A DNA stretch of 64,000 nt from Candidatus Heimdallarchaeum aukensis. GTDB taxonomy: Archaea > Asgardarchaeota > Heimdallarchaeia > Heimdallarchaeales > Heimdallarchaeaceae. Position 1 is the stretch's first letter. Every line of letters begins with the position of its first letter. The DNA is taken from the NCBI GenBank assembly GCA_021513695.1, contig CP084166.1, positions 1,696,001-1,760,000 on the forward strand. The letters are read 5' to 3'. The position numbers and the translations under genes were made by a program. The notes under the pieces are model-generated. The model was not told where the DNA came from, ran no database searches, and saw only the letters and a list, made by a program, of their open reading frames with translations. Below, in pieces: positions 8,279 through 47,575 of the stretch.

Positions 8279-10114
8279 ATGAGAATCGCTATCATCGATA
8301 TAGAAAAATGTAAACCTTCAAAGTGTGGCAAAGTGTGTTACAAATACTGCCCTCCAGTTAGAATGGGACAGGAAACTATTACATTTGATGGACCAGAAAA
8401 TAAAGCAATAATACATGAAGAACTGTGTACTGGTTGTGGTATTTGCATTAAAAAATGTCCTTTCCATTGTATAAAGATCATAAATTTGCCTGAAGAGCTG
8501 GATGATCAAGTCACACACAGATATAGCATTAATGGCTTCAAATTACATCGACTACCAATGCCTGCATTTGGAAGTGTGATTGGATTAGTGGGTCAAAATG
8601 GTTCAGGAAAAACTACAACCCTTAATATTCTATCAGGAGAGTTAAAACCAAATCTTGGTAATTACGAGAATCCTCCTGAATGGGACGAAGTAATAGAACA
8701 TTACAGAGGAACAATAATACAAGATTACTTTTCAAAGCTAGTAAATAAAGAATTAAGAGTAGTAAAAAAACCACAAAGCGTTGACAGACTACCAAGAGTA
8801 GTTAAAGGAAAAGTCTTCGAATTGTTGAAAAAAGTCGACGAAAGGGGAATTATAGACGAAATAAAAACAGAGTTTTCTTTAGAAAATGTATGGAACAGAG
8901 AGATTTCTAAACTTAGTGGAGGAGAACTTCAACGACTTGCGATTGCTGCCACAGTGGCAAGAGATGCTGATGTATACATGTTTGATGAACCAACAAGTTA
9001 CTTAGATATAAATGAAAGAGTTCGTATTTCTAAATATATTAATGATATGCAAGCAGCAAATAGAACAATTATTGTAGTTGAACATGACTTAGCAATGCTG
9101 GATTATGTAAGTGAAAATATTCATATTTATTATGGACAAGCGGGAGCTTATGGAATTGTAAGTCAACCAATGAGTGTCCGTGAGGGAATAAATGTTTTCT
9201 TAGATGGCTATATACCCTCAGAAAACATGCGATTCAGAGATACAAGTATAGTTTTTAGAAAAGCTTCACTTGCTTCAACAAGCTTATCACATAGAATTGC
9301 AATTAGATATGGAGATATAACAAAAGAATTCGATACATTTAAACTACAAGTAAAAGGAGGAGAAATACATAAGGGAGAAGTTGTAGGAATAATAGGTCCG
9401 AATGGTATTGGTAAAACAACTTTTGTCAAGATACTAGCAGGAGTTCTAGAACCCACTACAATGTCTCAACCTGTTGAATTATTAAGTGAAATCCTTGAAA
9501 TAGATAAGAAACAAGCAGATGATGAAGAGAGAAAAGTTATTGTTAGTCATAAACCCCAATACCTCTACACTGAATCAGAAGAAACAGTCGAAAGCTATCT
9601 AGGAAAAATAAGCCCTGAAATTTTTACGGGGGCATGGTTCAGAACAGAAATAGTTAGACCACTAGATATAGAGAAATTAAAAGATCAACCATTAAGTGAA
9701 TTGTCAGGGGGAGAACTTCAAAGAGTCTCTATTGCAGCGTGTCTATCTAGAAAAGCACATTTATATCTGTTAGATGAACCATCAGCATATATTTCTGCAG
9801 AAGATAGAGTAAGCACTGCAAGAGTGATAAAAAGAGTAATCAGTCATTATGAAGCAACAGCACTAGTAGTAGAACACGATGTTATGATGCTTAATTTTCT
9901 AAGTGATAATCTCATTGTCTTTGACGGAACTCCAGGAAGAGAAGGAAAAAGCACTTCTATTATGTCTCTACAACAAGGAATGAATAAGTTTCTCAAAAAA
10001 ATGGAAATAACTTTCAGACAAGACCCAAAAACCCTTCGACCACGCGTTAATAAGAAAGATTCTCAATTGGATAAAAAACAAAAAGCTGAAGGAAAATATT
10101 TTGTTGCTCTTTAA
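8279..10114 (+). CDS. abcE1: ABCE1/RLI (RNase L inhibitor) ribosome recycling factor: N-terminal 2x[4Fe-4S] + two ABC ATPase domains
   Basis: CKPSKCGKVCYKYCP and CTGCGICIKKCP Fe-S motifs. Two Walker A (GQNGSGKTT, GPNGIGKTT), two LSGGELQR signatures. The ATG at 8279 gives the typical MRIAIID start. Confidence 0.9.
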   Translation: MRIAIIDIEKCKPSKCGKVCYKYCPPVRMGQETITFDGPENKAIIHEELCTGCGICIKKCPFHCIKIINLPEELDDQVTHRYSINGFKLHRLPMPAFGSVIGLVGQNGSGKTTTLNILSGELKPNLGNYENPPEWDEVIEHYRGTIIQDYFSKLVNKELRVVKKPQSVDRLPRVVKGKVFELLKKVDERGIIDEIKTEFSLENVWNREISKLSGGELQRLAIAATVARDADVYMFDEPTSYLDINERVRISKYINDMQAANRTIIVVEHDLAMLDYVSENIHIYYGQAGAYGIVSQPMSVREGINVFLDGYIPSENMRFRDTSIVFRKASLASTSLSHRIAIRYGDITKEFDTFKLQVKGGEIHKGEVVGIIGPNGIGKTTFVKILAGVLEPTTMSQPVELLSEILEIDKKQADDEERKVIVSHKPQYLYTESEETVESYLGKISPEIFTGAWFRTEIVRPLDIEKLKDQPLSELSGGELQRVSIAACLSRKAHLYLLDEPSAYISAEDRVSTARVIKRVISHYEATALVVEHDVMMLNFLSDNLIVFDGTPGREGKSTSIMSLQQGMNKFLKKMEITFRQDPKTLRPRVNKKDSQLDKKQKAEGKYFVAL

Positions 10115-10118
10115 ACCT

Positions 10119-10580
10119 TCACTTTTTATCTTTTAAATGATTAAACCATTCTGGAAGTTTAATTTCATCTATTGGTACACTATCTCCAGGTAAATATGGT
10201 TTGATATCCAACACTGGAGTTCCATCTATGGCATCAATTCTATCGATAAATATCTTATTTTCCTCTATTTTCAGAACTTTAACCTTAGTCAATCCAATAG
10301 GGTTAGGTCTAGCAGGACTACGACAAGCGAAAACTCCTGTTTCCACTTCCATATCGAGATTTGGAGGATGAGCTAACACTTGTGAACGATCTTTTGGTGT
10401 ATCCCTCATTGAAATCCACCATAATACAAAAATATAATTGAAAAATTGGAGATGCCTTAATCCTGGAGAATAATGTTTAGACAATTCAATAAAACAAGAA
10501 TCTTCTTCAACTCTAACTTTCCCAATTTGCTGTACTTTGAAATATGACATAATGTCACTTTTTTTCTCATTTCTTATCAA
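10119..10580 (-). CDS. TsaA/YaeB/TrmO-family tRNA methyltransferase-like protein
   Basis: CRSPARPNPIGLTKVKVLKIE....IDAIDGTPVLDIKPY signature of the TsaA-like fold. True start possibly the internal Met (MSYFKVQQIGKV) at 10550. Confidence 0.7.
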   Translation of the reverse strand: MIRNEKKSDIMSYFKVQQIGKVRVEEDSCFIELSKHYSPGLRHLQFFNYIFVLWWISMRDTPKDRSQVLAHPPNLDMEVETGVFACRSPARPNPIGLTKVKVLKIEENKIFIDRIDAIDGTPVLDIKPYLPGDSVPIDEIKLPEWFNHLKDKK

Positions 10581-10697
10581 ACTTTCTCTTTAAATTAAGA
10601 TTATGACTATTTATCTGAAATGAGTATTACAAAAGTATATAGTAAAAAAAGACTATTCTAGTCTATTATTTTGAAAAAAGAATAGGAGACGGATTAT

Positions 10698-10928
10698 TTG
10701 AAAATAACAAGTAACCAATATTTAAATGATAGATATGATATTAATCACAGCCAATCATTCAATGAAAAGCAAACTAAAGAAACACTTATTGTTTTTCAAT
10801 GTGCAGAATGTGGAACAAACTATTTTTTTCCACCGACAAGATGTAAGCAAGCAAATTGCAAAAATATTCACTTTAAGCCTATTATAGTCTCAGGAATAGA
10901 AAAAGAAAAAATCTATAGCGGGTTTTAA
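10698..10928 (+). CDS. Small zinc-ribbon protein (hypothetical)
   Basis: 76 aa with CAECG...C..ANC four-Cys arrangement. No other support. Confidence 0.25.
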   Translation: MKITSNQYLNDRYDINHSQSFNEKQTKETLIVFQCAECGTNYFFPPTRCKQANCKNIHFKPIIVSGIEKEKIYSGF

Positions 10929-11068
10929 ATATACTTTTTAATTATAAAATTGAATAATTTTTTTGTTTCAGAGGTGTTGTAAAAATAAACATAAATAATA
11001 AGCTTTAAAATTTAACTTCAAAATTTGCATTAACAACGAGATGTCGAAAGGAATCGTTGGTGAGTATA

Positions 11069-11698
11069 ATGGCAAAAAGTATGTACAGATATATCGGTGA
11101 TTTTTGGAAGAAAAGAAACAGTCCAGAATTCAAGGAATTAATGCGAACAAGGATTATCGCATGGAGAAGAGAAGGAACACTTCAAAGAGTAGAAAGACCA
11201 ACAAGAATAGATAGAGCAAGAGCTCTAGGCTATAAAGCAAAACAAGGATATATTGTTGTTCGTTCAAGAGTAAGAAGAGGAGGAAGAAGAAAGAAGCGAC
11301 CTGTTCGAGGAAGAAAGTCAAGAAACTTAGGTGTAAACAAAATCACTCCAAAAAAGAGCATAAAATTAATTGCTGAAGAACGTGCTGCAAGAAAATATCC
11401 AAACTTAGAAGTTCTGAATAGCTATTGGGTTGGACAAGATGGAAGACACAAATGGTTTGAAATAATCATGGTTGATCCTCAACACCCAGCAATAGCAAAA
11501 GATCATCGAACTTCCTGGCTATCAGACTTTGAATACAGAGGAGACAAAAAATATTACTTAAAACGTGGTAACCAGAGAGGAAGAGTATTCAGAGGAAAAA
11601 CTAGCGCAGGAAAGAAGATGAGAGGACAAAGGAAAAAAGGTAAAGGAACAGAAAAGAACAGACCTTCTTTAAGAAGACATCGCCGAAGAGGAAATTAA
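11069..11698 (+). CDS. rpl15e: 50S ribosomal protein L15e
   Basis: [15 protein letters not shown]...[46 protein letters not shown], canonical L15e. The ORF-track TTG at 11057 is probably upstream of the real ATG at 11069. Confidence 0.9.
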
Positions 11699-32290: not shown

Positions 32291-33496
32291 ATGAATATCA
32301 TGTTAATAGGAATTGTAGGAAAACCAAGTGCTGGAAAAAGTACATTTCTCAATGCACTTACCATGGTTGGAGCTAAAACTGGCTCTTACCCTTTTACGAC
32401 TATTGAACCAAATAGAGGAACTGCTTATGTAAGAACAAAATGTAAATGTACAGAATTAGGTGTCAAAGATAATCCAAAAAATAGCATCTGTGAAAATGGT
32501 TTTCGTTTTTTACCTATTCAATTTTTAGATGTTGCGGGTCTTGTTCCAGGTGCATCTGAAGGGAGGGGATTAGGAAATAAATTCTTGGACGATTTACGTC
32601 AAGCTGATTTGTTGATTCATGTTGTTGATGCAAGTGGATCGTTAGATGCCGAAGGGAATCAAGTGGATAAAGGTAGCTGGGATCCATTGAAGGATGTTGA
32701 GTTTTTGGAAAAAGAAATCGATTCTTGGATTAAGAACATAATTACTCGTGATTATGTAGGAATGAAAAAAAAGGCTGAAGCAGAAAAGATAAGGCTATCA
32801 AAGTTATTAACTGAAAAACTTTCTGGATTAAAAATTTCTCCTTCTGATATTTCATCAGCTATCCTCGAATCAGACATCGTTGATGATGACCCTAAAACAT
32901 GGGATGAAAATCTGGATAATCTTGTTACTATAATTCGAAAAAAATCCAAACCTATAATCGTAGTAGCGAACAAGATTGATCAAGAAACAGCACACAAAAA
33001 CTATGAAAGAATGAAAGAAATTCTAAAAGAAGATGTTTTTCCTGCTTCTGCACTTTCTGAGGTCGTATTGAGATCAGAGCAAGAAAAGGGTACTATTAGT
33101 TATACCCCTGGAGATTCGGATTTTAAAATATTAGATGAAGAAAAGTTGGGGAAGAAAAAAGAAATTTTGTTAAAGATAAAACATGAAATTTTAGAGAGAT
33201 ATGGATCAACTGGCATTCAAAAAATACTAAATTATATCGTATTTGATAAAATGAAAATGATTGTTGTATATCCTGTTGAGGACTTAACAAAGTACACTGA
33301 CAAAGATGGAAATGTCCTACCTGATGCTTTTTTAGTTCCGAAAGGTACTACAACTATTGAGTTTGCAGGAAAAATACATTCTGACTTTGCAAAAAACTTC
33401 ATCAATGGACAACTAGCCCCCTCGGGAAGAAGAGTTGGAGCAGATTATGAATTACAAAACAACGATATTATAAAGATAAATGCAGCAGTAAAATAA
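32291..33496 (+). CDS. Obg-family P-loop GTPase/ATPase (YchF/OLA1/Ygr210-like) with C-terminal TGS domain
   Basis: GIVGKPSAGKSTFLNALT, FLDVAGLVPGASEGRGLGNKFLDDLRQADLLIHVVDASG. C-terminal TGS-like GDIIKINAAVK. The ORF-track start at 32186 precedes the real ATG (MNIMLIGIVGKPS). Confidence 0.8.
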   Translation: MNIMLIGIVGKPSAGKSTFLNALTMVGAKTGSYPFTTIEPNRGTAYVRTKCKCTELGVKDNPKNSICENGFRFLPIQFLDVAGLVPGASEGRGLGNKFLDDLRQADLLIHVVDASGSLDAEGNQVDKGSWDPLKDVEFLEKEIDSWIKNIITRDYVGMKKKAEAEKIRLSKLLTEKLSGLKISPSDISSAILESDIVDDDPKTWDENLDNLVTIIRKKSKPIIVVANKIDQETAHKNYERMKEILKEDVFPASALSEVVLRSEQEKGTISYTPGDSDFKILDEEKLGKKKEILLKIKHEILERYGSTGIQKILNYIVFDKMKMIVVYPVEDLTKYTDKDGNVLPDAFLVPKGTTTIEFAGKIHSDFAKNFINGQLAPSGRRVGADYELQNNDIIKINAAVK

Positions 33497-33560: not shown

Positions 33561-35858
33561 TTAAAGTTCATAATCATGGGTATGAAACATTACATCGCGG
33601 TTTACAGCTGCTTTAAACATCTGTAGAAGTAATTCATTGTCTGTTCTAATTGCTACAGGCACAGCATCTGGCACCAAAAATGCAAAGATTGCTTCGTCAA
33701 AACCATCCTTAATACCACAGAAAACATCCTTTTTATCGTATTGTCTTAATTTCAAACCTACAAATCGTTCTTTCAAGTTAATTAGAGCATTTCTAAATTT
33801 TCCAGAAGAAAAATCAGAAACAAGTGTTACTCTATTTGCTTTGGTGAACATTGCCATTTCTTCTAACAATGATTCTTCCAGATACGGTGTTATTACTAAC
33901 AACTCTCTACTAGCTCGCATACTTAAATCAGTTAAACTTGCAAGAATTGCTTCTTCCCCAACAATCACTGATACATTGTGATGTCCTCGAATGTTAATAG
34001 AATTTGCTGCTTTATCAATCTGCTTTAACTCACCCTCTCTTGTATTTATTATTTGATAATAGGCTGATGCTTTTTCTTGTAACAAAGCGAGTGTTTCCAT
34101 TATTGCTTCATCAACATCCTTGATAACAGAAGCTACTTGAGCAACAATAGTATCTATTTGTACTTCTTCTGCCTCAATTATTTTAGATGTCAGTTGTTCC
34201 TTTATTTCTTCTGTTTTTTCTTCCATAATTTTTATATCATTGTTTATATGATTCGCAATTTTGTCTTTAGTCTTTAACACTTTGCTTGAAAAGTCTTTAT
34301 CAAACATGGCCAATTTTTCTTTGAAATCTCCACCAATTTTTTTAATATCATCTTTTGTTTTATTTAACTCTGTATTCACTTCATTCTTGAAATCTATCAT
34401 TGTTTTTGAATGCTCATCATGGAACTGCTGGACATTTCCTATAATGTTCGACGAAGTGTTGTCCATACTTTCGGAAATAGTCTTGATTAAATTTGAACTA
34501 ACATCTCTACATGATTCGTAAGAAGAGGTTACATATTTCTCGACTTCATTTTGGATTTTGTTCAGAAGTTCATCAGGGAGGAGTTCTATTTTTTCAGTTG
34601 TTTCTGCTATTATTTTACTCTTTTTTGTTTTAATACTTGTTACTCCACTTAGTTGAAAATGATCAATTTTTTCACGTAGTTTATCTTTTGTTTCGTTAAT
34701 TTTTAAGACGTGTTGATCTACTATTTGGAGACCACTTTCTGAAAAATTATTAGCAAGCAACCTCATTCCATCTCTTACTTCCTGTAGTTTCTCGATTAAC
34801 GGGCTTGCTTTCTTTTTCTTCAGATCTTCTGCGAGATGTAAAGCATCAACTATAGTAGAAGAAAGTTTGTTTATGTTTCTATCAATTTGTTCTACAGATC
34901 TTCTTAGTTCTTGTGTTTGGCGAGTTTGTTCTGTTAAGATGAGATTAATATCTTGCTGCAAGGATTCAGCCAGGTTACGACTCTCCTTAATCCAAGCTTC
35001 AAAAGTATCTTCCCATATTCTTCTATATTCTTTTAGAAACTCTTGTTGTAATTCATTTGCATAGTTTAAATGTTCCTTCAAGACATTATCAAGTTCTGGT
35101 GCAAACTTATCTAAAAAATCTTTATGATTCTCCGTATGTGACTCAAGACCATTCTTTAAGATTTTAAATAATTCTGAAAAATTAGCTGAAAGCTGTTGTT
35201 CTATATTTTTTTTGTTTAATTCACTTCTTTTTTTTGCAGAATGTTCAAACTGTTTTATGAAAGCATCTAATTCTTGCAAATAAGACTCCATTCTGAGAGA
35301 TATGGCAATAGATTGGTTCTGAGCTTCTGCAATTTCTTTAGAAATCAAATTAACTGTTTCATCAAGGATATTAAATGATTCATTTTCTATTGCTTCAGTC
35401 ATTTCTACAAATTGAGAATTAACAGAATCAGTAAGTTGCTTTATTAACCCACTTACAATATGGATATCAAATATGTGCTCATCACTTGAAGTATCTAGTT
35501 TACCACCAAATTGCTTTCGTTTTTCTTTATAAGATGCTGCGTCATTCTTTAAACTATTTATTATTCCTTCAATTGCATATAATGTATCACGTTCTACTGT
35601 TATATATTGTTTCAAAAAAGGAAAAACAGCGAGATATTGTGGAGTTAAACCTTGAATTTTTTTAAGAAAACCGATCTCTTCCAGATTTCTTACTGACTGA
35701 ACTGTTGATAGAGCATCTAGTTGAGTTATAACCATGATTTCGCCTATCGTCGCTTTTCCTAAGCCAAGTATTGTTGTATATATTTTTATATCATTTTCAT
35801 TTAGACCAATTCTGGTTAATAATGGAGGTAATATGTTAACATCACTCATTTGTTTCAC
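33561..35858 (-). CDS. Large coiled-coil protein with N-terminal TrmB-type winged helix and C-terminal globular domain
   Basis: N-terminus LLTRIGLNENDIKIYTTILGLGKATIGEIMVITQLDALSTVQSVRNLEEIGFL..PQYLAVFP closely follows the TrmB wHTH pattern. ~500 aa of heptad-rich sequence. ~130 aa non-repetitive C-terminus. Confidence 0.5.
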   Translation of the reverse strand: MKQMSDVNILPPLLTRIGLNENDIKIYTTILGLGKATIGEIMVITQLDALSTVQSVRNLEEIGFLKKIQGLTPQYLAVFPFLKQYITVERDTLYAIEGIINSLKNDAASYKEKRKQFGGKLDTSSDEHIFDIHIVSGLIKQLTDSVNSQFVEMTEAIENESFNILDETVNLISKEIAEAQNQSIAISLRMESYLQELDAFIKQFEHSAKKRSELNKKNIEQQLSANFSELFKILKNGLESHTENHKDFLDKFAPELDNVLKEHLNYANELQQEFLKEYRRIWEDTFEAWIKESRNLAESLQQDINLILTEQTRQTQELRRSVEQIDRNINKLSSTIVDALHLAEDLKKKKASPLIEKLQEVRDGMRLLANNFSESGLQIVDQHVLKINETKDKLREKIDHFQLSGVTSIKTKKSKIIAETTEKIELLPDELLNKIQNEVEKYVTSSYESCRDVSSNLIKTISESMDNTSSNIIGNVQQFHDEHSKTMIDFKNEVNTELNKTKDDIKKIGGDFKEKLAMFDKDFSSKVLKTKDKIANHINNDIKIMEEKTEEIKEQLTSKIIEAEEVQIDTIVAQVASVIKDVDEAIMETLALLQEKASAYYQIINTREGELKQIDKAANSINIRGHHNVSVIVGEEAILASLTDLSMRASRELLVITPYLEESLLEEMAMFTKANRVTLVSDFSSGKFRNALINLKERFVGLKLRQYDKKDVFCGIKDGFDEAIFAFLVPDAVPVAIRTDNELLLQMFKAAVNRDVMFHTHDYEL

Positions 35859-36061
35859 TCACATATAAATTAAATTTTATTTATTCTTTTATCTCTAATG
35901 TCATATTAAGCAGTATAGATTTTAAATTTTTGTTCTCAAAAACAGAAAGCAGTTATAAAAAATACTGATTATATCTTGCCCTCTTTTAACTTACTATCAG
36001 CTATAAATATGTTATTTAGAAATACACTATAGTTATAGTAAAAAGTGGGATAAAAAGAAAA

Positions 36062-36625
36062 TTAAGCATATAGTTTCTCATAGAAAAGTACAATGTTTTT
36101 TAGCAGAGTTTTAAATGCTTCGTCCACGTTTTCACCAGTCTTTGCTGAAGTTTCAATATATGGAACTGCAAAACCTGACCAAGCTGATAACGATCTTGCA
36201 TATTCTTCTGCTTGTTCCCGTAAAATGGGGTCTTTTGCTGTGTCCCTTAAATCAGATTTATTTCCAATTAAAACAATTGGAACAACACGATTATGATTAT
36301 TTTTTAATAGTTCTGCAATCCACGCAGGTATGTTCTCAAAAGATGACCTACGAGATATATCAAAAACAAGCAGGCAACCAGATGTTCCACGATAATATAC
36401 CTCCCGTACTGCTGAAAATCTTTGTTGCCCAGCTAAATCCCATATTTGTGCTACAAAATCCTGTTGATCTATTTTCAATCTTTTTACCGCAAAATCTGCA
36501 CCTATTGTCATACTATATCCTTCTTTAAACCCCTCACCTAGGTATGTTTTTCTGAGTGATGTTTTTCCTACAGCACCGTCACCGAGTAATGTTACTTTGA
36601 AAATTTTTCGCTGTGATGAACTCAT
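36062..36625 (-). CDS. Ras/Rab-like small GTPase
   Basis: G1 GDGAVGKTS, switch II WDLAGQQRF (DxxGQ), G4 GNKSDL, G5 ETSAKTG. 187 aa. No CaaX. Confidence 0.8.
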   Translation of the reverse strand: MSSSQRKIFKVTLLGDGAVGKTSLRKTYLGEGFKEGYSMTIGADFAVKRLKIDQQDFVAQIWDLAGQQRFSAVREVYYRGTSGCLLVFDISRRSSFENIPAWIAELLKNNHNRVVPIVLIGNKSDLRDTAKDPILREQAEEYARSLSAWSGFAVPYIETSAKTGENVDEAFKTLLKNIVLFYEKLYA

Positions 36626-36835
36626 TATTTATTCCCCAATTAACTCCAATTAGTAATGACTAAATTAACACTATAAATTAATTACTTTGTAATGCTTTAA
36701 ATATTTTGCTTACTAGGAAAAGTTTTTTCAAACAATTGTAAAAAAAACAAAAATTCAAGTTTCAAAAACCATGACTGAAAAAAATAAGAAATTTTGTGAG
36801 GACAAGATAATTAAGCTTAAAAGTTTCTGAAAAAT

Positions 36836-37522
36836 ATGAAAAATATGAACAAGTTAGCTAATGTCGTTCTTGAAAGACTTTTAGAACACTATGACATCAA
36901 AAAAAAGGAATTTTTGAATAATTATTCAACTCCCTTTCAGTTACTAGTTGCAGCATTATTAAGTGCTCAAAGCACTGACAAACAAGTGAACACTGTTACT
37001 AACCAACTCTTTAAAAGATATCCAGATCCCCAATCTTTTGCACAATCATCTCCAGAAGAGATAGAACAATATATTAAAAGCGTGGGACTTTACAAGACTA
37101 AAGCCCGAAATATCCATAATCTTTCTAAAGTTTTACTAAGTGAATATAACTCTTCGGTACCTAAAACAATTTCAGAACTAATAAAATTGCCAGGAATTGG
37201 AAGAAAAACAGCTAATGTTGTTTTAAATGATTGGTTTCAAATAAATGAAGGAATAGCAGTAGATACTCATGTGCAAAGAATTAGTTATCGTATAGGCTTA
37301 ACAAAGCATACCAATCCAGAAAAAATAGAAAAAGACTTGATGCTTCTTTTTCCAAAAAATAGTTGGGGTATATTGACTCGTTTATTTATTTCACATGGAA
37401 GAGAAATTTGCTTAGCTCGCAATCCAAAGTGTGATAATTGTTTTTTAAGTGATATTTGTAAAAAAAACATTATCAGAAAAAACAAATCAAGTAAAAGAGA
37501 GAAAAATAATATTACTAAATAA
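36836..37522 (+). CDS. nth: Endonuclease III (Nth) HhH-GPD DNA glycosylase with 4Fe-4S cluster
   Basis: LPGIGRKTANVVL HhH-GPD motif. C-terminal CLARNPKCDNCFLSDIC cluster ligands. Confidence 0.9.
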   Translation: MKNMNKLANVVLERLLEHYDIKKKEFLNNYSTPFQLLVAALLSAQSTDKQVNTVTNQLFKRYPDPQSFAQSSPEEIEQYIKSVGLYKTKARNIHNLSKVLLSEYNSSVPKTISELIKLPGIGRKTANVVLNDWFQINEGIAVDTHVQRISYRIGLTKHTNPEKIEKDLMLLFPKNSWGILTRLFISHGREICLARNPKCDNCFLSDICKKNIIRKNKSSKREKNNITK

Positions 37523-38273
37523 CTGTTGTATCAAAATTTGGATCTAGTTCTACGGTATCATCCTCTTTAAGTTGTACTATCTTTATTTTTTCTAATTCCT
37601 TAAGGTATTGTTTTGTTTGACTTAGAGAGATACCTAATACAAAAGATAACTGCATTTGAGAAATTGATTGTAACTGTTTTAACATACTTATTATTTTATA
37701 TCTTGGATCTGTAGAAACTAGTTTTTGTGTTATCTCCTTGACTTTATTCCACTGTTCTTTTTCTTCTTTTAGATTCTTCAATTCTTTTTCAATTTCAGAT
37801 TTTTTTACAGAAAGAGCAACTACTTGATCAGATAATTCATATATTAGTTGTTCTCGTTCTTCTAACATGCTAATAAGTCTAGAAATGTATTCTTTTTGTT
37901 CTTCGACAATGGAAATCTGTTCTTCTTGATTTTCAGTTTCTTCTTGTTTTTTGTACTTCTGTCTATCAAAATCTAATTCTTTTAACAATTTTTCTTTTTC
38001 ATCGACATCAGAAGAACTATAGAATAGTGTAATTAGTCTATAAAACTCTGATTTTATTTCGCTCAAAAGAAATTTGGTGGAACCGTCAATTTGCTCTTTA
38101 ATCATATCAACAATTGAAGTAATTTCAAAAGGAAGATCTTTACTTGTACTTGTTTGTAAAATAGGTGGATATTTTGTTAAACTCTCTTTTAAAGCTTGTA
38201 TTTCATTTGATAATTTTATAATTTCAGTAAGTATTCTCTCTTTTTCATTGTTTTTATTTTCATCTATTGTCAT
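37515..38273 (-). CDS. Coiled-coil protein with C-terminal winged helix (third gene of the Roadblock operon)
   Basis: 252 aa. Central Glu/Lys heptads. C-terminal MQLSFVLGISLSQTKQYLKELEKIKIVQL wHTH. Confidence 0.4.
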   Translation of the reverse strand: MTIDENKNNEKERILTEIIKLSNEIQALKESLTKYPPILQTSTSKDLPFEITSIVDMIKEQIDGSTKFLLSEIKSEFYRLITLFYSSSDVDEKEKLLKELDFDRQKYKKQEETENQEEQISIVEEQKEYISRLISMLEEREQLIYELSDQVVALSVKKSEIEKELKNLKEEKEQWNKVKEITQKLVSTDPRYKIISMLKQLQSISQMQLSFVLGISLSQTKQYLKELEKIKIVQLKEDDTVELDPNFDTTVI

Positions 38274-38281
38274 TTTTCACC

Positions 38282-39112
38282 CTATATCTTTGAGGTTGAT
38301 TCGATCTTGAATCCTTCTTCTTCTGATGGAGATACATCCAAAACTTCACTTATATATGCAACACCCATTAATTTACTTATAGAAAATGTATCTCTTAACC
38401 TTGAACCAATTCTATCTCTTGTAAAATAGAAAATTCCTTGAGCATAATTTAAAATAATTTGTTCTGCTACAGGATTCAGAATATTTTGAGGGAGTAAAAA
38501 AAAGTGCACTCCACCTATTTTTGAAAACATCTGAATTATCTCTTTCATAAAACTAATTAATGTGTTATGATCGTCATCCAATTGATCTTCCTTTAGCCAT
38601 AGAAGGTCATCGAAAACACTAAAACAATTCTTTTTCTGTGTTTCTTTAACATGCATAATCTTTTCTATAATACGTTTAACGTATGTTCTTCTTTTTACCT
38701 CAATTCGCCCTATTTTTAATGAAGTAGTTGTGCTGCTAGCCATATCATACATATTTTCAAAGAAAAAAGATTTGTCCTTTACACTCATTATATCCCAGTT
38801 GTATGCCGTATATGATTGTTTTACAAGCTCAAATGGTTTACTACTATGCACATAAAAAACACGGTTAAGATCAGTTTTTTGAGCCCAGTTAAGAACAATA
38901 CGTTGTACAAATAACAGAGGAATTACTGAAGATGCAGGGTAAGAAACGACAATTACAGAACCAGAAGGAATACCTTGTCTTGCAGACATCTCCATACCAA
39001 GCTTTTGATCTAAAGAACGAATTCCAGTTTTAATTAATCCTGTGGAAAGTGTAGATTCAGCGCCTACTTTACCTATTCTTTCTATATTTCCTCTTGTATT
39101 GTTGAAACTCAT
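38282..39112 (-). CDS. KaiC/RecA-superfamily (COG0467-like) protein with degenerate Walker A (predicted pseudo-ATPase)
   Basis: TGIRSLDQKLGMEMSARQGIPSGSVIVVSYPASS follows the KaiC-like TGIxxLDxxLGGGxPxGSxxLxxGxPGxGKT pattern, but GKT is replaced by SYPASS. Confidence 0.55.
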   Translation of the reverse strand: MSFNNTRGNIERIGKVGAESTLSTGLIKTGIRSLDQKLGMEMSARQGIPSGSVIVVSYPASSVIPLLFVQRIVLNWAQKTDLNRVFYVHSSKPFELVKQSYTAYNWDIMSVKDKSFFFENMYDMASSTTTSLKIGRIEVKRRTYVKRIIEKIMHVKETQKKNCFSVFDDLLWLKEDQLDDDHNTLISFMKEIIQMFSKIGGVHFFLLPQNILNPVAEQIILNYAQGIFYFTRDRIGSRLRDTFSISKLMGVAYISEVLDVSPSEEEGFKIESTSKI

Positions 39113-39138
39113 CTTCTAACCCCGCATAGAGTAATTAT

Positions 39139-39666
39139 TTAGAATTCTTCTAGTTCTTTTAGTGCGAGTTCAAGATCAGATAAATACTCTTCTTGAACAG
39201 ATTCAACTTTTGGAGTTGGTTCAGCAGTTGAAACTTGTGTTGGTGTACTAACGGGTTGTTTTGCTTCTATGGGTTTTGTTTCAACATCCAATATTGCTCT
39301 GATATTTTCAGACTGTATTTTCATAGTTCGTCTAACCAAACCTAGTTGAATGCCTGCATCTGTTATAAGACAGAGTACAGAGCTACCACAACTAGCAACT
39401 AAAATAAATCCATCTTCAAATTCTGAGATAATAATATCCAAATTTTCTAGACCAACATTTGTTCCTTGTTGTTCAGAAGCTAAATATACTGCACTTGCTA
39501 TTGCTCCTAGAGCTTCTGTTTCAAACTCATCGAAAGCAAATCTTGAAGAATATGCCAGTGTCAACCCTGTTTTATCAGCTAAAATAACATGGTTTATTAA
39601 AGGATCACTTGTAATAATTTCATGGAGAATACTGTTTATCTTATCTACACCGATAATTCTTATCAC
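39139..39666 (-). CDS. Roadblock/LC7 (MglB-like) domain protein with Pro/Thr linker and acidic C-terminal helix
   Basis: LINHVILADKTGLTLAYSS...ALGAIASAVY...FEDGFILVASCGSSVLCLITDAG Roadblock fold signature. C-terminus PVSTPTQVSTAEPTPKVESVQEEYLSDLELALKELEEF. Confidence 0.7.
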   Translation of the reverse strand: MIRIIGVDKINSILHEIITSDPLINHVILADKTGLTLAYSSRFAFDEFETEALGAIASAVYLASEQQGTNVGLENLDIIISEFEDGFILVASCGSSVLCLITDAGIQLGLVRRTMKIQSENIRAILDVETKPIEAKQPVSTPTQVSTAEPTPKVESVQEEYLSDLELALKELEEF

Positions 39667-40552: not shown

Positions 40553-41017
40553 CTAATTTCTTTTCCACATTAATTTTCCATTTTGCTCGATTTTGCTTAA
40601 TACTCCGGCTTTCTCCATCTCTGAAAGAGTCTTTGTAAATTCTTCCTTCGATAAAGGTTGTTCTCCTTTCTTCATTCTAGAGAAAACACATGCCGTATAT
40701 AGCGCATCTTCATACATAAATTTGCTAGAGGAAAATGATTCTAGTATTAGGTTCATATTGGGAATTTTATGCTCTTTGACTACTGTTTCTACTTTTTGTA
40801 CAGATGGTGTAATTGTACTAATTTTTGAACTGAAAATATCTGTTAACAAATCTGAAAGTTTTTTTCCTGTTATGGTCTCTGAAAAACCATACAACTCAGC
40901 AAGACCAGACACTGCATGAAGGATAAAATGTTCAATAGATGTGAATTTACCCTCCTCAACTTTCTTTTCTATAAAACTATACAGTTCATCTGGTATGTTC
41001 AAGTTAAATTGTTTCAA
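40553..41017 (-). CDS. Hypothetical protein with N-terminal RHH-like and C-terminal wH-like segments
   Basis: NLNIPDELYSFIEKKVEEGKFTSIEHFILHAV then LSKEEFTKTLSEMEKAGVLSKIEQNGKL. No confident family. Confidence 0.3.
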   Translation of the reverse strand: MKQFNLNIPDELYSFIEKKVEEGKFTSIEHFILHAVSGLAELYGFSETITGKKLSDLLTDIFSSKISTITPSVQKVETVVKEHKIPNMNLILESFSSSKFMYEDALYTACVFSRMKKGEQPLSKEEFTKTLSEMEKAGVLSKIEQNGKLMWKRN

Positions 41018-45266: not shown

Positions 45267-45824
45267 ATGGGAAAGGATATTGAAGTCAAATTTAGAGACT
45301 ATGAAGTGTACAAACTGAGTATCTGCGGACCAGGTCAAGCAGGAAAGACAAGTTTATGTAAAAGACTTGTACATAACAAATTTACCAAATCCTATAAAGA
45401 AACAGTGGGGGCAGAATTTTTTAGCTATAAATTTAACACAAAGAAAGGAAAAAATGTTGGCTTATTTTACGATTTTGCGGGACAACAACGATTTGTAAGT
45501 GTACGTAATGTTCTTTATCCTGGCACAGATGCTGCAGCAGTTGTATTTGATGTTACAAAAAGGGATTCTTTTCGTTCTGTTGCCCAATACATTAGAGAGT
45601 TAAGGACGAAACTTAAAGATGTTGAAATAACAATTGTTGGAAACAAAATTGATTCTAAAAAAAGAGAGATTTCATTTGAAGATGCAAAGAGAATAGCAGA
45701 AAAACTAGGTTGTAAGTACGTTGAAACCTCTGCTGCAACTGGTGAAGGATTAGGAGAATTTTTCAAAACATTAATACATTCTGCAATTTCATATAAAAAG
45801 AAAAAAATAAGTGTTGTAGAATGA
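45267..45824 (+). CDS. Ras/Rab-like small GTPase (second copy)
   Basis: G1 GPGQAGKTS, switch II YDFAGQQRF, G4 GNKID, G5 ETSAATG. 185 aa. Confidence 0.8.
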   Translation: MGKDIEVKFRDYEVYKLSICGPGQAGKTSLCKRLVHNKFTKSYKETVGAEFFSYKFNTKKGKNVGLFYDFAGQQRFVSVRNVLYPGTDAAAVVFDVTKRDSFRSVAQYIRELRTKLKDVEITIVGNKIDSKKREISFEDAKRIAEKLGCKYVETSAATGEGLGEFFKTLIHSAISYKKKKISVVE

Positions 45825-46813: not shown

Positions 46814-47575
46814 GGTAGTGTCTAGTTTTTATACCACCTCCTAGGTAAAAAGGAACTAAGGGGAGGATGTCCTAAGCTCTGATGAGGACGAACGAAATTA
46901 TAATAGAGCATAAAGAGAGTAAGAAAACCAGAAAGATGAGTAGAGCCATAGACGGCACGGATAGGACAAGTGCAGTGGAGAATAGAATGAAACCAACGAT
47001 AACTCTTAAGAGTAGCATTAAAACGTTCAATATAGGAGCGTAAACCACCTTTGATAACGGAGATTTTAATACCGAGACGAAGTAAGACAGGATACCATAC
47101 CCCTGCATCTGTAACGACAATACGAGGCTTAGAACCCCAACATTTGAACCAATAACGAAAAGTTAGTAAACATTCAAGATTACTCCGTCCTTTAGTAATA
47201 CTAAAACCCAGTAAAGTCTTGTTGTAAGGATCTAACGCGAACCACATGTACATTGAGCCTTGAGAGGTCTTAATCTCTGTTTCATCTACTACTATAATCT
47301 CTGGTATTCCCCCTCTCTCTGCTACAACTCTATGTAAACTTTCCCTAAAGAGGCTGAATTTCTTTACCCAATACCATAGTGCCTGGTGTGTTAAACCATT
47401 CTTCCATGCTACTGTCCTCAACCCATTCTTTGAACCGATATATTCATAAATAGCTCTTATGATTATTTTCTTGGGGATTCTGCTCCCTTTAAAAAGGGAG
47501 TATATTCTTAGTTTGTTCATATTTTCACATTAGAATCCCCAATAATATTTTTGTCGGGAGAAACTAGACACCACC
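46814..47575 (-). mobile_element. IS6-family insertion sequence (762 bp) with ~15-bp terminal inverted repeats
   Basis: IRL ggtagtgtctagttt (46814-46828) vs IRR aaactagacaccacc (47561-47575): 14/15 complementary. Single 232-aa DDE transposase. Visibly GC-richer than surroundings. Flanked by direct repeats. Confidence 0.8.
46822..47520 (-). CDS. tnp: IS6-family DDE transposase
   Basis: D (IIVVDETEIK), D ~61 aa later (RIVVTDAGVWY), E 34 aa later (YIERFNATLK), giving DD(34)E spacing. YNFVRPHQSL integrase-core motif. N-terminal HTH. Confidence 0.8.
   Translation of the reverse strand: MNKLRIYSLFKGSRIPKKIIIRAIYEYIGSKNGLRTVAWKNGLTHQALWYWVKKFSLFRESLHRVVAERGGIPEIIVVDETEIKTSQGSMYMWFALDPYNKTLLGFSITKGRSNLECLLTFRYWFKCWGSKPRIVVTDAGVWYPVLLRLGIKISVIKGGLRSYIERFNATLKSYRWFHSILHCTCPIRAVYGSTHLSGFLTLFMLYYNFVRPHQSLGHPPLSSFLPRRWYKN

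Follow-up and report, generated by a model that had tools for sequence, protein, structure and literature searches.

The gene at positions 36062..36625 (minus strand) of a 64,000-nucleotide stretch of the Candidatus Heimdallarchaeum aukensis genome (contig CP084166.1, positions 1,696,001 to 1,760,000; hereafter the window, meaning this whole stretch) encodes a small GTPase, here called GTPase1, which lies close to an operon containing a Roadblock gene. GTPase1 is very probably a stand-alone Rab-like GTPase of the Asgard type, transcribed independently of this operon. A functional pairing of the two, suggested earlier from the letters of the DNA and their open reading frames (the sequence-only reading), finds no good support in the gene order; the closeness of GTPase1 to the operon is best explained by a gene order conserved at the level of the family Heimdallarchaeaceae, and not by a dedicated partnership. 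The identity of GTPase1, its motifs, fold and conservation, and the gene order around it are established below.

Identity and class of GTPase1

The open reading frame (ORF) fills the interval 36062..36625 exactly, from the ATG (36623-36625) to the TAA (36062-36064) on the minus strand, which the sequence-only reading had not named, and its length is already unusual, since the G+C content of the window (31.8%) makes stop codons frequent. The Pfam Ras model (PF00071) matches over profile positions 1-160 of 162 with E=1.7e-49 and 167.9 bits (cut-off 21.6), accompanied by weaker cross-matches within the superfamily (Roc, Arf with 63.7 bits, GTP_EFTU, Gtr1_RagA with 24.5 bits). A deposited 'GTP-binding protein' of Ca. 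Heimdallarchaeum aukensis has exactly this sequence (100% identity), and the counterpart in Ca. H. endolithica agrees with it to 99%, a finding which bears out the Asgard origin proposed in the sequence-only reading; 3072 relatives were found in the database at E<=1e-10. The gene and its sequence features are the following:

36062..36625, minus strand: Rab-like small GTPase gene (GTPase1), 187 amino acids, stop codon included (ORF, Pfam Ras, database identity, Rab fold of the AlphaFold2 model)
36560..36583, minus strand: G1/P-loop GDGAVGKT, residues 15-22 (motif search)
36506..36508, minus strand: G2/switch I, T40 (alignment to 7EZB)
36425..36439, minus strand: G3/switch II DLAGQ, residues 63-67, with the predicted catalytic Gln67 (motif search)
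36251..36262, minus strand: G4 NKSD, residues 122-125, predicted guanine specificity (motif search; DNA atcagatttatt on the plus strand)
36170..36199, minus strand: segment YARSLSAWSG specific to the family, residues 143-152, exceeding the Thor-Rab counterpart by about 6 residues and carrying Trp149 (alignment gap against 7EZB)
36140..36148, minus strand: G5 SAK, residues 160-162 (motif search)

These motifs are maintained almost without exception in an alignment of 61 relatives. Within the P-loop, G15, G17, V19, G20, K21 and T22 are invariant; in switch I, T40 is kept in 58 of the 61 sequences and M39 in 57. The DLAGQ of G3 sits inside the longer motif WDLAGQQRF (residues 62-70), with D63 invariant and Q67 present in 60/61. 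N122, K123 and D125 of G4 are likewise invariant, as are E158, T159 and A161 around G5. Concerning the family-specific segment and its vicinity, W149 occurs in 61/61 relatives, and Y142 and L146 are invariant too. The only cysteine of the protein is C84; the C-terminus (...KNIVLFYEKLYA, ending in LFYEKLYA) contains no CAAX, CC or CXC box, and none of the 61 relatives (0/61) has a cysteine among its last six residues. Two claims of the sequence-only reading, a complete Ras/Rab-type small GTPase with DxxGQ switch II and NKxD, and the absence of a C-terminal prenylation box, thus agree with the Pfam match and the motif search on the one hand and with the cysteine distribution on the other.

Compared with the sister species Ca. 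H. endolithica, the gene exhibits dN=0.005 and dS=0.41 (nonsynonymous and synonymous divergence, respectively), i.e., a dN/dS of about 0.01, and is under extreme purifying selection. This pattern, together with the Pfam E-value and the large number of relatives, rules out a chance reading frame. A 137-amino-acid antisense ORF at 36115..36528 (plus strand) was considered as an alternative gene and rejected: it shrinks to 77 and 63 amino acids in orthologous loci, and, given this shortening and the dN/dS of the GTPase frame, it is regarded as spurious. Compared with the AB_125-type Heimdallarchaeaceae, synonymous sites are saturated, whereas the protein is still 93% identical. As this value exceeds those of all other proteins of the syntenic block (Roadblock protein 73%, or 85% in its core; S27ae ~75%; S24e ~62%; the TIM gene product ~62%; pseudo-KaiC ~61%; the endonuclease III encoded by nth ~60%; coiled-coil winged helix-turn-helix (wHTH) protein ~37%), GTPase1 is the most constrained gene of its neighbourhood.

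Concerning the class of the GTPase, all comparisons lead to Rab-type proteins. The best match in a PDB sequence search is the Thorarchaeota Rab 7EZB (3e-39), followed by Ypt7, Rab7, Rab11, Rab2 and Rab1, and 60/60 listed matches are of Rab type. An AlphaFold2 model built on the alignment of the 61 relatives adopts a Rab fold (predicted local distance difference test, pLDDT, 86.7; predicted template modelling score, pTM, 0.84), and the top 50 Foldseek matches of this model in the PDB are all Rabs, Thor-Rab among them, with template modelling (TM) scores of 0.8-0.89; model and Foldseek matches thus display the six-stranded alpha/beta G-domain fold. BLASTP scores against reference sequences decrease from Rabs (103-133 bits) over Ras/Ral/Rap (92-99) and Rho/Ran (80-92) to Arf/RagA/Sar1 (34-40) and MglA (29). 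In a rough neighbour-joining tree, GTPase1 and eight Asgard relatives group with Thor-Rab (73% bootstrap) in a clade that is Asgard-only and lies outside the eukaryotic Rabs, within an assemblage of Ras, Rab, Rho and Ran (81%) from which Arf/Sar/Rag and MglA are separate. Scored against the RabF1-RabF5 consensus of Pereira-Leal & Seabra, GTPase1 matches RabF1 in 4/5, RabF2 in 3/5, RabF3 in 2/6, RabF4 in 4/5 and RabF5 in 4/6 positions, the segments corresponding to RabF1, RabF4 and RabF5 being IGADF, YYRGT and LVFDIS. The features of a strict eukaryotic Rab are absent, namely a C-terminal cysteine motif on a hypervariable tail and, judging from the rough tree, a position inside the eukaryotic Rab clade. 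Present are those of the Asgard Rab-like (Thor-Rab type) proteins, i.e., closest similarity to Asgard Rab-like sequences and then to eukaryotic Rabs, a single G domain and no lipidation site. By its sequence, GTPase1 would therefore be called Rab-like in the Asgard sense of Tran et al. 2024, and not a strict Rab, because it lacks the prenylation tail that defines the eukaryotic Rabs.

That GTPase1 might instead be a prokaryote-type MglA-like, an Arf-like or a Rag-like GTPase is extremely improbable. The Pfam matches to Arf and Gtr1_RagA would speak for it, yet such cross-matches are usual within the superfamily, and the Arf score stands far below that of the Ras model. The similarity to MglA amounts to 25% identity over a partial alignment; GTPase1 possesses the aspartate of G3 (Asp63 in DLAGQ), whereas MglA has the threonine in TVPGQ, and Met39 is found where MglA carries its intrinsic arginine finger. 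A co-directionally linked Roadblock gene, as in the mglB operon link of the MglA family, is missing as well. Neither the C-terminal Roadblock domain of Rag/Gtr proteins nor the Gly2 or the amphipathic N-terminal helix of Arf proteins is present, and the tree separates GTPase1 from MglA, Arf and Rag (81%). An MglA-type identity, named in the sequence-only reading as an outcome that would speak against its own interpretation, is accordingly rejected on the scores given above and on the presence of DxxGQ.

The label 'copy 1', which the sequence-only reading had given to the gene, is apt, as a second Ras-family gene is situated at 45267..45824 (plus strand). It encodes 185 amino acids (Pfam Ras 2.8e-39), 36% identical to GTPase1, with the P-loop GPGQAGKT and the switch II motif FYDFAGQQRF, and lies between the genes for a YdjM-like membrane protein and a 3-hydroxyacyl-CoA dehydrogenase; the rough tree places it outside the Thor-Rab clade. 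An Obg/YchF-like protein encoded nearby (32291..33496, plus strand; YGR210-like G4 domain, MMR_HSR1, TGS) is a third P-loop GTPase, unrelated to these two.

Transcription unit and gene order

From the surrounding sequence, GTPase1 is most likely monocistronic: its mRNA would start from a promoter of its own within the 210-bp divergent region shared with nth and would end at a T-rich tract behind the stop codon. The elements concerned are:

36040..36061, minus strand: T-rich tract after the stop codon (TAA-TTTTCTTTTTATCCCACTTTTT), candidate archaeal oligo-T terminator (read from the sequence, function putative)
36626..36835, no strand assigned: divergent intergenic region between GTPase1 and nth, 210 bp (read from the sequence)
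36836..37522, plus strand: endonuclease III gene nth (Pfam HhH-GPD 4e-26, HHH, EndIII_4Fe-2S)

Oligo-T tracts serve transcription termination in archaea. A Shine-Dalgarno-like GGGG element is found 8 nt before the ATG (GGGGAAT..ATG is kept in the loci L001, L002 and L010), and a TATA-like TTTATAG (minus-strand reading) about 50 nt upstream of the gene. Across genera, the upstream intergenic region is mostly unalignable, and the GGGG...ATG arrangement and the TATA-like element alone recur. An Rfam scan of the whole window yielded no match. On the 3' side, a gap of 203 bp separates GTPase1 from the gene of a 765-amino-acid protein (33561..35858, minus strand) in which a TrmB-type helix-turn-helix (HTH) at the N-terminus is followed by some 500 residues of helical repeats resembling apolipoproteins, probably a coiled coil, and by a C-terminal domain that is conserved. 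The Roadblock module of the Kariarchaeaceae locus L091 and of L108/L110 is accompanied by homologues of this TrmB-coiled-coil protein.

The sequence-only reading had put GTPase1 about 900 bp from the Roadblock operon and had concluded from this proximity that the two were functionally paired. The distance is correct, 889 bp lying between the start of GTPase1 and the 3' end of the operon (stop of the HTH gene at 37515), whereas the conclusion is not borne out: the interval, as that reading had overlooked, is filled by nth, the divergent partner of GTPase1 on the plus strand, and an operonic link is missing. In about 35 other loci of Heimdallarchaeaceae the order is TrmB-coiled-coil gene (-), nth (-), GTPase (+), wHTH (-), pseudo-KaiC (-), Roadblock (-), TIM (+), i.e., the other sampled members of the family have the nth/GTPase pair in the opposite orientation to that of the window, and their GTPase gene is transcribed toward the operon, never in the same direction. 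Because either nth on the opposite strand or the convergent orientation intervenes, GTPase and operon cannot share a transcript. Furthermore, the whole block of about 10 kb, including TIM, S27ae and S24e, is syntenic within Heimdallarchaeaceae, and the adjacency of GTPase and operon is therefore no more telling than the adjacency to the ribosomal protein genes.

The inverted segment corresponds to 36062..37522 in the window, 9015..10570 in L002 and 9727..11179 in L088, while L001 and L092, which with the window represent the two Heimdallarchaeum species, have the orientation of the window; the pair is flanked by the TrmB-coiled-coil gene and the Roadblock operon in either case. Inverted repeats at the segment borders were considered, and a 14-nt pair (36011-36024 / 37510-37523) was discarded as chance, 25 comparable pairs being found in 2.1 kb of this AT-rich DNA.

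Beyond the family, the homologues of GTPase1 have other neighbours: UvrC in Kariarchaeaceae, an OST3-like protein and thioredoxin in Gerdarchaeota and another Heimdall group, subunits of a thiamine pyrophosphate (TPP) enzyme and TrmO in the case of a 65% identical paralogue in AB_125-type genomes, and in further cases a family 2 glycosyltransferase (GT2), NAPRTase, isochorismatase or bactofilin. In the loci examined, Pfam scans of the recurrent neighbours never revealed a homologue from another lineage next to a Roadblock gene. These scans were added to an iterative hidden Markov model (HMM) search with the Roadblock protein of the window over all ORFs of 79 GTPase loci, which recovered 23 orthologues alone and is too insensitive for divergent paralogues. 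A conserved operonic linkage of GTPase and Roadblock gene is thus not found: nth lies on the opposite strand in the window, the genes are convergent elsewhere in the family, and five more distant loci with the trio lack the linkage.

Two arrangements recur among these homologues. In L041-L048 and L081/L082 (e.g., L045 3709..4245, L041 2027..2470), which belong to another Heimdall group and to Gerdarchaeota, the closest homologue (62-65%) has a Ras-like paralogue just upstream and the genes for the OST3/OST6-like protein and thioredoxin downstream, a neighbourhood which may point to some connection with N-glycosylation or membrane proteins. In L054-L071 (e.g., L055 10001, 13226, 13904; metagenome-assembled genomes of Hodarchaeales, Heimdall and Thor lineages), a homologue of about 50% identity has two more Ras-like genes (~30% identity) at a distance of 3.2-3.9 kb on its downstream side, with a GT2 glycosyltransferase in between, such that a conserved multi-GTPase cluster is formed.

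The Roadblock trio and the question of a pairing

The Roadblock gene belongs to a three-gene unit that lies outside the transcription unit of GTPase1:

37515..39666, minus strand: three-gene unit, or trio (Pfam, homologue annotations, conserved in further loci)
37515..38273, minus strand: coiled-coil protein with C-terminal wHTH (Pfam HTH_24)
38282..39112, minus strand: KaiC-like protein without Walker A, or pseudo-KaiC (KaiC/GvpD/RAD55-type annotations and PF06745 on homologues)
39139..39666, minus strand: Roadblock protein (Pfam Robl_LC7 1.5e-7)

A motif search for Walker A (GxxxxGK[ST]) in the KaiC-like protein was negative. The families of the pseudo-KaiC (56 proteins in the database) and of the Roadblock protein (69) are both confined to Heimdallarchaeia, and the GTPase1 subfamily is far more widespread than either. 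At the C-terminus of the Roadblock protein (residues ~130-175), a linker rich in Pro, Thr and Val, whose sequence and length vary, carries an acidic amphipathic helix that is strictly conserved (EEYLSDLELALKELEEF, consensus DLELAL[KR]ELE[EQ]F) and is also found in the Kariarchaeaceae homologue (ADLELALRELEEF). From its sequence, this helix may serve to dock the protein onto a partner, and presumably resembles the C-terminal helix with which MglB contacts MglA.

Among more distant relatives within the Heimdallarchaeia, the trio genes stand in a row at L083/L105 and L086 (pseudo-KaiC 47-48% identical), L108 (41%), L110 (40%) and L111 (38%), and at these five loci no Ras-like ORF was detected nearby (HMM E<=1e-5, over 1-10 kb as limited by the contig ends). 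The trio is thus a self-contained unit. Roadblock homologues of 45-48% identity stand alone beside rps10; at L084, L089, L090, L112 and L113, which belong to more distant lineages, a Roadblock or pseudo-KaiC homologue adjoins this ribosomal protein S10 gene among translation genes, and the module tends toward such housekeeping neighbourhoods. A 154-amino-acid protein of the window (40553..41017, minus strand), which has no Pfam match, is kept beside the TIM or the Roadblock gene in Heimdallarchaeaceae and Kariarchaeaceae (37-61% identity). Farther away, weak sub-threshold matches of an ORF at 46822..47520 (minus strand) to integrase cores (rve_3 4.4e-5, rve 1.6e-4) indicate a possible remnant of a mobile element.

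The locus L091 of Kariarchaeaceae (contig JBQSKW010000083) is arranged differently: TrmB-coiled-coil gene (-), Roadblock (+), the homologue of 40553..41017 (+), a Ras-family GTPase (-), wHTH (-), pseudo-KaiC (-), TIM (+). Here the GTPase gene (9124-9723) follows the wHTH gene at a distance of at most 70 bp on the same strand, so that 9124..11457 (-) has an operon-like appearance; the Roadblock gene and the 40553..41017 homologue converge on these three genes. To judge from the GTPase sequence, the slot is taken here by a different paralogue, and the closest relative of GTPase1 in the same assembly (65% identical) is found on another contig beside UvrC.

Several points weigh against an independent GTPase1. 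In every member of the Heimdallarchaeaceae that was sampled, the GTPase gene keeps its place next to the 3' end of the trio, even across the local inversion; no gene of the trio codes for a GTPase; regulation of GTPases is a common role of Roadblock proteins (MglB, Ragulator); and in L091 the pseudo-KaiC and wHTH genes share their direction with a gene for a Ras-family GTPase. In addition, the promoter and terminator calls build on short AT-rich motifs, the tree is a rough one computed by neighbour-joining only, the human and Myxococcus reference sequences used for BLASTP and tree did not come from database records (Thor-Rab and Ypt7 came from the PDB search), and the biochemistry attributed to GTPase1 is derived from sequence and model, not from the protein itself. 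The position next to the trio, the lack of a GTPase within the trio and the arrangement in L091, together with the gap of 12-30 bp between GTPase and trio in AB_125-type genomes, the acidic C-terminal helix and the existence of Roadblock/GTPase operons in Asgard archaea (preprint 10.1101/2020.10.19.343400), would fit a view in which the proximity denotes a functional unit and GTPase1 is the cognate switch of the trio, with the Roadblock dimer as an MglB-like GTPase-activating protein (GAP) or a Ragulator-like guanine nucleotide exchange factor (GEF) or scaffold that might use its tethered helix. This is nevertheless unlikely: GTPase1 is never co-directional with the operon elsewhere in its own family, and nth separates them in the window; the GTPase of L091 is a different paralogue with 31% identity to GTPase1; the five further loci keep the trio without a Ras-like gene nearby; and the GTPase1 subfamily extends far beyond the range of the pseudo-KaiC and Roadblock families. 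Some adjacency of GTPase and Roadblock genes is also to be expected by chance, because there are dozens of small GTPases per genome (291 in 8 Asgard genomes, PMC8813620), two of them in the 64-kb window, and many Roadblock genes. A looser link, in which the trio works with some small GTPase, is possible, and GTPase1 is not singled out by it. Carried further, the trio could represent a small-GTPase-controlled module of Heimdallarchaeia with its switch encoded next door (GTPase1 in Heimdallarchaeaceae, another Ras-like paralogue within the operon in Kariarchaeaceae), a Roadblock dimer working as GAP or GEF by way of its tethered C-terminal helix, and a DNA-binding coiled-coil protein as output; this proposal is rather improbable, and if true, it would imply that signals pass from a GTPase to the DNA in these archaea and that the GTPase has been replaced by a non-orthologous one.

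A second candidate for a meaningful partner is nth, which might be co-regulated with GTPase1 via a shared bidirectional promoter. In the inversion that separates Heimdallarchaeum from other Heimdallarchaeaceae, the head-to-head pair has turned as one piece, and it is intact in about 35 loci; moreover, a homologue in Kariarchaeaceae is followed by another DNA-repair gene, uvrC. The pairing is, however, confined to one family; near homologues elsewhere, nth-like genes are 5-8 kb off or absent, and two repair genes in two families may easily coincide. We know of no mechanism linking Rab-like GTPases to base excision repair, and a partnership with nth is considered very improbable. The independent, stand-alone GTPase thus remains the preferred reading.

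Implications and comparison with known systems

As such a stand-alone protein, the single G domain of GTPase1 would cycle between a GTP-bound and a GDP-bound state. Thr22 of the P-loop and Thr40 would coordinate Mg2+ and nucleotide, Gln67 of DLAGQ would be the catalytic residue, and NKSD and SAK would confer guanine specificity. Since Met39 replaces an intrinsic arginine finger, fast hydrolysis would require a GAP in trans, and nucleotide exchange would probably need a GEF; recruitment to membranes or complexes would have to proceed via protein partners, because neither a lipid anchor nor an Arf-type N-terminal helix is present.

Small GTPases of the Ras superfamily are among the eukaryotic signature proteins and are cited for the view that trafficking-type switches were present in the archaeal ancestor of eukaryotes. 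In the paper that presents both closed Heimdallarchaeum genomes (Wu et al. 2022, PMC8813620), small GTPases make up one of the eukaryote-related protein families. GTPase1 is already deposited and belongs to a known class, the Asgard Rab-like GTPases, so that it is nothing new in kind; it constitutes a clean and exceptionally conserved example in a closed Heimdallarchaeum genome. The useful outcome is a negative one: proximity to the Roadblock operon should not be taken to indicate a GTPase/regulator pair at this locus. If a physical link did exist, the partners would be among the first defined ones of an Asgard Rab-like GTPase.

Among proteins of solved structure, GTPase1 is most similar to Thor-Rab (PDB 7EZB/7EZD/7EZE; PMC10933270; E=3e-39, G domain 43.5% identical), which has been crystallised with GDP and GTPgammaS, binds both, exhibits slow, Rab11-like intrinsic hydrolysis and has no prenylation sites (PMC10933270). 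Both are single-domain Asgard GTPases with all G motifs, a WDLAGQxRF switch II, a Rab-like fold and a short C-terminus without prenylatable cysteines, and they are grouped in the neighbour-joining tree (73%). Despite this general similarity there are some differences: GTPase1 possesses Met39 at the putative position of the intrinsic arginine finger (Arg37 in Thor-Rab, Arg53 in MglA; PMC10933270), and its stretch from G4 to G5 is longer by about 8 residues, among them the Trp149 that is invariant in its subfamily; the host of Thor-Rab belongs to a different phylum, and Thor-Rab has been assayed, whereas GTPase1 is known from sequence and model. Rab-like proteins also predominate among the 74 small GTPases of the cultured Lokiarchaeon MKD1, and REP and Rab-GGTase are absent from Asgard archaea (PMC10933270). 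Eukaryotic Rab7/Ypt7 and Rab11 are 39-41% identical to GTPase1 (129-133 bits); unlike these, it has neither a hypervariable tail nor a CC/CXC site, and its agreement with RabF2 (3/5) and RabF3 (2/6) is poor.

Concerning the Roadblock side, the locus recalls the bacterial MglA/MglB module in that a GTPase gene is situated near a gene for a Roadblock protein with a tethered C-terminal helix. It differs in that GTPase1 is not MglA-like (29 bits, DxxGQ instead of TxxGQ, no arginine finger) and the genes do not form one operon; the Roadblock protein itself matches MglB only with E=0.3-0.5, and better the Asgard-type Robl_LC7 protein 7F8M (9e-4) and LAMTOR2 (0.011). An Asgard operon combining a LAMTOR1-like Roadblock protein, a Rab-like GTPase and a DENN protein has been described by Liu et al. 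(preprint 10.1101/2020.10.19.343400), who also find two small-GTPase families among the Asgard core genes. Equally to that operon, a Rab-like GTPase and a Roadblock-superfamily protein occur here in an Asgard genome, whereas the locus has no DENN gene, GTPase1 is not co-directionally linked with the Roadblock gene, and the partners of the Roadblock protein are a KaiC-like protein lacking Walker A and a coiled-coil wHTH protein. The Rag/Gtr-Ragulator system offers a conceptual parallel only, i.e., a Roadblock protein regulating a small GTPase: the Roadblock protein of the window is weakly LAMTOR2-like, and GTPase1, unlike Rag/Gtr, has no C-terminal Roadblock domain and scores 38 bits against the RagA G domain and 24.5 bits against the Pfam Gtr1_RagA model.

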